A stretch of 64,000 nt of DNA from a virus (lineage: Duplodnaviria; Caudoviricetes), in the IMG/VR virus record IMGVR_UViG_3300014059_000006, positions 1-64,000 of that record. One strand, 5' to 3'. The first letter of the stretch is position 1. Each line of letters starts with the position of its first letter. The translations under genes were made by a program, and so were the position numbers. The notes below the pieces were generated by a model. It did no database searches and was not told where the DNA came from. It saw nothing but the letters and a program-made list of their open reading frames with translations. Shown piece by piece: positions 25,107 through 25,786 of this stretch.

Positions 25107-25139
25107 GGGTTAGATGGTAAATGTGGTTTAATCAGCGGT
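25107..25139 (+). pseudogene. 5' half of disrupted tRNA-Tyr
   Basis: GGGTTAG...GCGGT; pairs with ACCGT and CTTACCC in 25744-25786. Confidence 0.85.
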
Positions 25140-25183
25140 AAAAATATATTAGGATTTTACCATACTTTTTATTATATTTAATT

Positions 25184-25681
25184 ATGAAAGGTTTATTATC
25201 GAGTTACTCTGACGAGGAGTTTAAAAATATTGTAGACTTATCTGATTCATTTTCAGATATTAAAAAAAGGTTAGGGTACAAAACAACAAGTGGAGGGGTT
25301 TCTTCATTGATTAAAAAAAGAGTGGAGAAATTAAATTTAGATTTATCTAAGTTCACCAGAAATAAAGATAAAAGAATATTAAATTTAAAACGAGCAACAT
25401 TTGACATAACCGAGATTTTAATAGAAAACTCTAATTATACAAATAGAGATAGGCTGAAAATTCGATTAGTATCAGAAAAAATTTTAAAATATGAATGTGA
25501 AATTTGTAAAAATAATGGAACATGGAATAACGAACGATTATCATTACAGTTAGACCATAAAAATGGTATTAGTAATGACAACAGGATTAATAATATTAGA
25601 TTTTTATGTCCTAATTGTCATAGTCAAACTATTAATTTTAGTGGTAAAAATAAGGGGAGTACTGTTAAGATGGTGGATTAA
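25184..25681 (+). CDS. HNH endonuclease
   Basis: YECEIC...LQLDHKNG..NDNR..N.RFLCPNCHSQT. Confidence 0.95.
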   Translation: MKGLLSSYSDEEFKNIVDLSDSFSDIKKRLGYKTTSGGVSSLIKKRVEKLNLDLSKFTRNKDKRILNLKRATFDITEILIENSNYTNRDRLKIRLVSEKILKYECEICKNNGTWNNERLSLQLDHKNGISNDNRINNIRFLCPNCHSQTINFSGKNKGSTVKMVD

Positions 25682-25743
25682 CACTAGTCTGTAAAACTAG
25701 TACATTAGAAACTCAAAAGGTTCGAATCCTTTTACTCCCACCA
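25655..25743 (+). tRNA. tRNA-Tyr(GTA), carried in HNH cassette
   Basis: CTAGT CTGTAAA ACTAG; encoded CCA; overlaps last 27 nt of the HNH ORF. Confidence 0.9.
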
Positions 25744-25786
25744 AACCGTCGCGAAAGCTCTGTAGGTTCGATTCCTACCTTACCCA
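25744..25786 (+). pseudogene. 3' half of disrupted tRNA-Tyr
   Basis: ACCGT-CGCGAAAGC (variable arm)-GTAGG TTCGATT CCTAC-CTTACCC-A. Confidence 0.85.

Follow-up and report, generated by a model that had tools for sequence, protein, structure and literature searches.

The virus record analysed here comprises 107.9 kb of DNA with a G+C content of 31.6%. Its opening 64,000 nt, the whole stretch that was studied, are referred to as the window. ARAGORN placed a tRNA array on the plus strand between 21.1 and 25.8 kb. Within this array, a tRNA-Ser(GCT) gene (25014-25102) is directly followed at position 25107 by the 5' half of a tRNA-Tyr, and the corresponding 3' half is separated from it by an insert of 605 nt (25140-25744). 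The original prediction had placed an HNH gene and an intact tRNA-Tyr(GTA), overlapping by 27 nt, between the two halves, and ORF analysis as well as the ARAGORN and Rfam calls agree with this arrangement. The features of the locus are listed in Table 1.

Table 1. Features of the split tRNA-Tyr locus (positions in the window; L005 and L006 are metagenomic contigs)
Feature	Position	Strand	Description and basis
Resident tRNA-Tyr, 5' half	25107-25139	+	Dead remnant; direct reading of the sequence
Cassette leader	25140-25183	+	A/T-rich, 44 nt; alignable with L005 and L006
HNH endonuclease ORF	25184-25681	+	165 aa; PF01844, PHROG 10822
Cargo tRNA-Tyr(GTA)	25655-25743	+	Intact, CCA encoded; ARAGORN, Rfam tRNA 45.8 bits
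Resident tRNA-Tyr, 3' half	25745-25786	+	Dead remnant; sequence and alignment to intact alleles
Inverted repeat	25791-25832		Perfect, 14 bp, A/T-rich; directly past the old tRNA-Tyr 3' end

The 5' half can be parsed as GGGTTAG / AT / GGT / 12-nt D loop / ATC / A / GCGGT and contains the 5' strand of the acceptor stem, a 3-bp D stem (GGT/ATC) and the 5' strand of the anticodon stem (GCGGT). The 3' half, parsed as ACCGT / 12-nt variable region / GTAGG TTCGATT CCTAC / CTTACCC / A, supplies the 3' strand of the anticodon stem, a short variable arm, the T arm, the 3' strand of the acceptor stem and the discriminator A. Six of the seven acceptor pairs between the halves can form (T5:T68 is a mismatch), as can all five pairs of the anticodon stem, one of them a G.T, and the T stem of the 3' half is completely paired (5/5). 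Together, the halves constitute one class II tRNA minus exactly the 7-nt anticodon loop. The prediction that the 5' half ends with GCGGT, that the 3' half resumes at ACCGT and that the loop alone is missing is thereby exact to the base. When the halves were joined in silico via CTGTAAA, ARAGORN called an 82-nt tRNA-Tyr(GTA); the loop, including the anticodon, was supplied in silico and is needed for this call. A covariance model built from the intact homologues described below (R1) matched the 5' half (25107-25165, 19.9 bits, E = 0.01) and the 3' half (25750-25778, 13.6 bits, E = 0.37). These E-values provide modest support, since the model was too general (effective sequence number 1.32) and scored every tRNA. 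The tRNA identity of the halves nevertheless goes beyond chance, because the 22-nt D-arm motif of the 5' half lies inside an intact tRNA-Tyr(GTA) of 84-86 nt in all 15 IMG/VR contigs that carry the motif. The inverted repeat marks the end of a Leu-Leu-Ser-Ser-Tyr block of tRNAs, and no terminator was called at it in a consensus scan. The block (24673-25786) contains class II tRNAs, i.e. those with a long variable arm, only, and the same set in the same order was observed in the contig L019.

With a sixteenth intact copy on contig L007, the D arm of the 5' half is identical or nearly identical to that of 16 intact tRNA-Tyr(GTA) genes. In these homologues the region of the break reads GCAGT/GCGGT CTGTAAA ACTGT/ATCGT. 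The D arm and the CTGTAAA loop are invariant, sequence variation in the acceptor and T stems is compensatory, and the anticodon loop is located at the edge of a block of ~33 bp that is invariant among the intact alleles. The halves of the window align with the intact alleles along their entire length. In L019, the gene order Leu(tag)-Leu(taa)-Ser(tga)-like-Ser(gct)-Tyr is that of the window, and the intact tRNA-Tyr, likewise followed by a hairpin, starts 4 nt past Ser(gct), which is the exact start position of the 5' half in the window. A further intact tRNA-Tyr, on the soil metagenome contig L113, has the acceptor stem (GGGTTAG/CTAACCC) and T arm of the window. Since this allele shares acceptor and T arm with both halves, the halves derive from the same gene; the assumption that they represent one tRNA-Tyr gene is thus supported by the intact homologues and by L113. 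The paired CTAACCC of L113, compared to CTTACCC in the window, reveals T68 as the change that breaks pair 5:68, and the resulting mismatch suggests a small degree of decay after the insertion. The intact alleles, all 16 including the syntenic one in L019, come from more distant phages: an exact IMG/VR search for the rejoined allele gave no match, and close relatives of the phage sought via its PhoH gene, or an isogenic empty site, were not found.

The insert starts with a leader that is 68% identical to the leader in L005. Just 5' of the HNH start codon it carries a TAtaTTTA box, which is near to the Bacteroidota-type -7 box TAnnTTTG. The leader of L006 has an exact TAtaTTTG, and boxes of the same type precede other ORFs of the window, suggesting that the leader box is a putative promoter. 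The promoters in the window have the Bacteroidota form TTTG...TAnnTTTG, from which the host range is judged to be bacterial. The phage is probably crAss-like. The second tRNA of the locus, hereafter the cargo tRNA, overlaps the final 27 nt of the HNH ORF. According to ARAGORN it is the sole tRNA-Tyr in the 107.9-kb genome, and hence the insert has functionally replaced the gene that it broke. The original prediction had also pointed to the encoded CCA of this tRNA. While the CCA is present in the window, it is absent from the cargo tRNAs of L005 and L006 and is not a conserved feature of the cassette.

An exact IMG/VR search with the T arm of the cargo tRNA gave no match. Using a degenerate D-loop pattern, relatives were found in metagenomes, and the cargo type proved to be a second widespread type of phage tRNA-Tyr. 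In L111 and L115 it is an ordinary member of the array in which no nuclease is present. In L112 and L114 it is located ~100 nt downstream of a longer relative of the HNH gene, with no tRNA halves around the pair. The HNH-tRNA-Tyr pair thus also occurs free-standing, and therefore the nested form looks derived. In L113, a cargo-type tRNA-Tyr stands in tandem behind the intact, resident-like tRNA-Tyr. There (L113:2564-2739), the intact gene lies 7 nt upstream of the cargo-type gene, its D arm and anticodon stem are unlike those of the window, and no nuclease is encoded; this pair could be a resistant allele or a former cassette from which the HNH gene was lost.

The HNH protein consists of a helical N-terminal domain and a C-terminal beta-beta-alpha-metal HNH domain (CxxC...CxxC, DH, N). 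Its score against the Pfam HNH model PF01844 (21.4 bits) is exactly at the curated cut-off of 21.4, and the match to phrog_10822 extends over residues 6-162 (E = 4e-47). The family comprises more than 1400 homologues of ~155-165 aa. In an alignment of 25 homologues, C105, C108, D124-H125, N137, C142, C145 and H146 were invariant. An AF2 model reached a pLDDT of 83.8 and contains two strands and a helix at residues 122-146 with pLDDT >90. The best Foldseek matches were weak (E>=0.09) and all of them were HNH nucleases, namely McrA, Cap5 and Cas5-HNH/type I-E HNH Cascade complexes, with the HNH domain of Cas9 further down the list. A profile search against solved structures yielded nothing significant, and no characterised member of PHROG 10822 was among the matches examined. 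The ORF is free of in-frame stops under translation table 11.

A tRNA interrupted at its anticodon loop could be read as a functional split or intron-containing tRNA-Tyr, from which ~605 nt are removed at the RNA level before the halves are joined. Bacterial group I introns in tRNAs classically interrupt the anticodon loop, and the halves are on the same strand, in order and within one transcription unit. An Rfam scan of 20500-28000 (E<=1), however, returned tRNAs and chance matches only and neither a group I nor any other intron. Moreover, the halves lack the entire 7-nt loop and with it the anticodon, the related locus in L006 is without the 3' exon, and a complete tRNA-Tyr is located inside the insert. 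Considering the absent loop, the lack of an intron family and the complete tRNA-Tyr inside, we rejected the intron and split-tRNA readings as extremely improbable. A split or permuted tRNA of the archaeal type was rejected as well: the ends form no bulge-helix-bulge pairing, the loop is absent and the host is bacterial as judged by the promoters. Beside the anticodon stem, the ends of the insert do not pair with each other and are A-rich on both sides, in the window as well as in L005. A 13-nt near-repeat, AGCGGTAAAAATA (25134) and AGTGGTAAAAATA (25640), was considered as a recombination footprint and rejected; L005 does not share it, and such a match can be expected by chance in A/T-rich DNA.

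We propose that the locus is probably an intron-less 'cut-and-replace' homing cassette that takes the place of the anticodon loop of the resident tRNA-Tyr. The cassette unit would consist of a weak promoter of its own (the putative leader box), the HNH homing endonuclease and the cargo tRNA-Tyr. During a mixed infection, the HNH enzyme would cut an intact tRNA-Tyr of the resident type at or near the anticodon loop, as judged from the insertion point. The break would be repaired off the cassette-bearing genome, with the tRNA halves and further flanking DNA serving as homology, and the cassette would be copied in. As in intron homing, the insertion would destroy the target and render the carrier immune. 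Splicing would play no part in restoring the function of the tRNA-Tyr, which the imported isoacceptor gene would supply, and the first insertion would have needed an illegitimate event. Because the last 27 nt of the ORF are shared with the cargo tRNA, RNase P would trim the HNH message: cutting at the 5' end of this tRNA would take away the final nine codons together with the stop codon. Akin to what has been proposed for segB (see below), such trimming would probably keep nuclease expression low. Cleavage specificity, immunity of the cargo, homing pathway and RNA processing are steps that we infer from the rules of homing and from SegB.

The closest relatives of the HNH protein are encoded on the short metagenomic contigs L005 and L006 (64% and 61% identity); a peptide-word search of IMG/VR for close relatives returned none. 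In the HNH tree, the proteins of the window, L005 and L006 group in a single clade (SH-aLRT 89), whose sisters are Leu-linked and other members. L005 displays the complete order of 5' half, homologous leader, HNH gene, tRNA-Tyr overlapping the ORF end, and 3' half. In L006 the 5' half, leader, HNH gene and tRNA-Tyr are followed directly by a tRNA-Cys and the 3' half is absent. In each of the three loci the left junction follows position 31 of the old tRNA; the right junction precedes position 39 in both loci that keep the 3' half. The flanking alleles are different ones: that of L005 has the acceptor CGGTGTG/CGCACCG and the T stem GTGAG/CTCAC and is fully paired, and the 5' half of L006 carries a D-arm variant shared with the intact gene of contig L020. 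The 5' halves of the three loci share 82% identity, and despite their different sequences the stems of the halves have remained paired. The anticodon arm of the L005 cargo tRNA differs from the resident type at a single base pair. Since this cargo nearly matches the anticodon arm of the target, nuclease recognition would have to reach to the D-arm or the variable-arm side.

Pairwise comparison of the three HNH genes gave dS values of 1.4-2.4 and dN/dS ratios of 0.14-0.21, suggesting that the lineage is old and that the protein has been kept functional by purifying selection. Neutral DNA this old would be expected to be scrambled. As the HNH genes are that diverged, yet the halves are similar and paired, the flanks are younger than the cassette. 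This age contrast may be read in two ways, as selection on the halves or as repeated moves of the cassette into alleles that were intact until recently. Under the former reading, the halves would be no mere scars but would be kept for a use, either as arms of homology or as an RNA handle; in the latter, pairing of the acceptor strands and the T arm would fold the transcript of the cassette into a closed, tRNA-like module for RNase P/Z. Pairing and D arm are indeed conserved although the cassettes are very old, and in both the MFE and the centroid fold of 25104-25790, 5 bp of the acceptor join the two ends and the 3' half adopts its T arm. This prediction is weak, however, misfolding even the cargo tRNA, and no function need be invoked for the conservation if the cassette has homed repeatedly into a conserved pool of genes. 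Repeated homing is favoured, because the 3' half is wholly lost in L006 and the window carries a pair-breaking change, both of which argue that the halves are dispensable. We therefore regard selection on the halves as very unlikely. A broader version, which we consider rather unlikely, holds that the halves are maintained working parts, serving as homing arms and as an RNA handle that sets the ends of the HNH message by RNase P/Z, while the cassette spreads tRNA-Tyr isodecoders (with another D stem, anticodon stem and variable arm) that escape tRNA-Tyr-cleaving host defences. If true, cassettes of nuclease and tRNA would quite generally drive both the turnover of tRNAs and anti-defence in phage arrays. 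For the homing cassette, the age contrast between cassette and flanks fits mobility and is the strongest indirect evidence for it at this locus.

Association with tRNA genes is a habit of the whole HNH family. A tRNA was present within 1.5 kb in 76 of 80 IMG/VR loci, and in 33 of these the nearest downstream tRNA lies at most 30 nt past the stop codon or overlaps it; a few of the 33 are on the other strand. In the Rhizobium phage RHph_TM30 (MN988521.1; L001:2816-3266) an ORF of the family overlaps a tRNA-Trp by 10 nt, and in the Enterococcus phage EFDG1 (L105:1186-1730) an HNH homologue overlaps a tRNA-Leu by ~50 nt. These members from cultured phages are unannotated, as in RHph_TM30, or labelled hypothetical. 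To find nested cases, the loci were scanned for orphan T arms with an acceptor strand matching a 7-mer upstream of the HNH gene, which revealed two more within the family. In L038 (1230-1969), a 5' half ending ...TGGAG TTGT is followed by a tRNA-His and the HNH gene and by a 3' half starting GGC CTCCA. As the halves end and begin there, the His anticodon loop has been cut in two (TTGT / GGC). In L090 (1369-1993), halves with 7/7 acceptor pairs flank a tRNA-Phe and the HNH gene. When the isotype of the partner tRNA was mapped on the HNH tree, 15 changes were counted, compared to a mean of 20.4 and a minimum of 17 in 300 label shuffles. Since the partner isotype changes often, the linkage of HNH gene and tRNA is loose at the family level, though clustered.

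The design is not restricted to tRNA-Tyr. In the Glu cassette of the same array (21091-21765), a 5' half is followed by a tRNA-Glu, an HNH_2-type ORF and a 3' fragment. The Cys cassette (21849-22459) consists of a 5' half with its loop, an endonuclease VII-like HNH gene (PHROG 2255), a tRNA-Cys that is overlapped by the ORF for 22 nt, and a 3' fragment. A genome-wide search for CPNCH/CANCH-type motifs identified three HNH-motif ORFs, all inside the tRNA array. The original prediction had assigned the Tyr HNH protein to another subtype than those of the Glu and Cys cassettes. This was borne out: the three proteins share only the LCPN(C/H)H motif and belong to different Pfam/PHROG families, which makes independent recruitment of unrelated nucleases reasonable. 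It would then be reasonable to assume that three unrelated nuclease lineages reached one design in a single array.

These comparisons also bear on the possibility that the locus is recombination debris. In that case, a free-standing HNH gene and a neighbouring tRNA-Tyr would have landed here once by nuclease-provoked illegitimate recombination, the nesting would play no role in mobility and the target of the HNH enzyme would be elsewhere. Phage tRNA arrays are hot spots of endonuclease-driven rearrangement, as exemplified by SegB-driven amplification (PMC13096335), partner isotypes switch often in the HNH family, and the window contains other odd or chimeric tRNA-like pieces. A single landing is, however, difficult to reconcile with a junction shared by three loci: their HNH genes have reached synonymous saturation, whereas their flanks are different, still paired tRNA-Tyr alleles. 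The nested layout is also found again in L038 and L090, i.e. with tRNA-His and another tRNA in the HNH family, and again with Glu and Cys in the window, there with unrelated nucleases. Debris hence appears an unlikely explanation, and the homing cassette remains the preferred one.

Homing endonucleases are thought to persist in useful genes only by means of self-splicing introns or inteins, or else beside their target. The cassette would be a third solution, which is to destroy the target and bring a spare copy. In the Aeromonas phage Aeh1, nrdA is split by mobE and the protein fragments reassemble into an active enzyme. Akin to the cassette, this is a free-standing gene for an HNH-type homing endonuclease inside a host gene that involves neither intron nor intein; in contrast to Aeh1 nrdA, the tRNA fragments of the cassette are dead remnants, for which a spare copy makes up. 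The Aeh1 case is mentioned in PMC2330249 and PMC2988022. With mobile group I introns in tRNA anticodon loops (PMC3984707), the cassette shares the insertion point, the destruction of the nuclease target by the insertion and the neutralisation of the damage to the host gene. Unlike these introns, the cassette has no ribozyme, the loop is deleted and rescue is brought about by a second gene instead of splicing.

The HNH gene lies within a phage tRNA cluster, as do the nuclease genes of the SegB and F-Tfl kind. SegB of phage T4 targets tRNA genes, and the stop codon of its gene is removed by tRNA maturation, which has been proposed to restrain expression of segB and likewise of the T5 enzymes (PMC2330249). 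An association of SegB with tRNAs across phages and a role in tRNA-Tyr amplification have also been described (PMC13096335). Like the free-standing SegB of T4/T6, the cassette enzyme would be a selfish nuclease in a phage tRNA array that targets tRNA genes and drags neighbouring tRNAs along; further parallels are the ORF end, which abuts a tRNA so that the message would be clipped, and the statistical association with tRNAs across phages. SegB, however, is a member of the GIY-YIG superfamily that recognises T-psi-C and makes its cuts at the 3' ends of tRNAs. Moreover, its gene is flanked by intact tRNA genes instead of being nested within a split target, and descriptions of an isoacceptor dedicated to replacement are lacking. 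F-TflI, F-TflII, F-TflIV and hegA of T5/BF23 are H-N-H enzymes of the tRNA region (Akulenko et al. 2004, cited in PMC2330249 and PMC10644984) and, like the cassette enzyme, are thus encoded among phage tRNA genes according to these secondary accounts. Distant homology links BF23 hegA to the C-terminal half of the HNH protein (36% identity over residues 90-158). The T5/BF23 enzymes differ in being longer, of low identity and located between intact tRNAs, and the same secondary accounts report no split tRNA.

A search of full-text literature, a body outside which most subscription journals lie, found no published unit of nuclease and spare tRNA nested in the anticodon loop of its target. This locus contributes the syntenic intact allele in L019, the three diverged copies at one junction and the contrast in age between cassette and flanks. 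The cassette would provide one explanation for several features of phage arrays that routine annotation misses: fragments of tRNAs, isoacceptors in duplicate and nuclease ORFs extending into tRNAs. The cassette also suggests selfish nucleases as drivers of an exchange of tRNA isodecoders between phages, which bears on how phages retain tRNAs able to evade host defences that cleave tRNAs. PHROG 10822 is a very large family, the members of which nearly always adjoin tRNAs; if they are true cutters of tRNA genes, the family would be a source of nucleases recognising such genes.

Several other unusual elements were observed in the array. A LAGLIDADG endonuclease ORF of 144 aa (23881-24340; PF14528/PF00961) with its own TAnnTTTG box is followed directly by a 3' tRNA fragment (T loop, CCCGT, CGGTACT). 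A matching 5' half was not found nearby, and the locus may be a fourth, more decayed cassette. Two tRNA-like sequences have unpaired acceptor strands, one at 23681-23751 with the loop TTTGCAA (Ala TGC; Rfam 26 bits) and one at 24341-24420 with the loop CTTTTAA (Lys TTT; Rfam 46.7 bits, covering model positions 8-63 only). Both may be chimeras that arose by recombination between tRNA genes.

At 24848-24933, a tRNA-Ser(TGA)-like gene has the acceptor GGAAGAG/CTCTTCC and the loop CTTGAAA, and its T arm deviates from the TTCGA consensus; it was called neither by ARAGORN nor by Rfam (E<=1). The syntenic copy in L019 (about 994-1085) possesses a normal T arm, yet was missed by ARAGORN too. The 77 nt between this gene and Ser(GCT), 24937-25013, have no counterpart in L019. 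They contain GACTGTAAAC, a Tyr-like anticodon-loop motif, and gave no tRNA call with any tool; the segment could be a remnant or an unconventional RNA. Finally, a tRNA with the anticodon CTA, an amber suppressor labelled Pyl by ARAGORN, is encoded at 27698-27770, which suggests readthrough or recoding of TAG in part of the phage.
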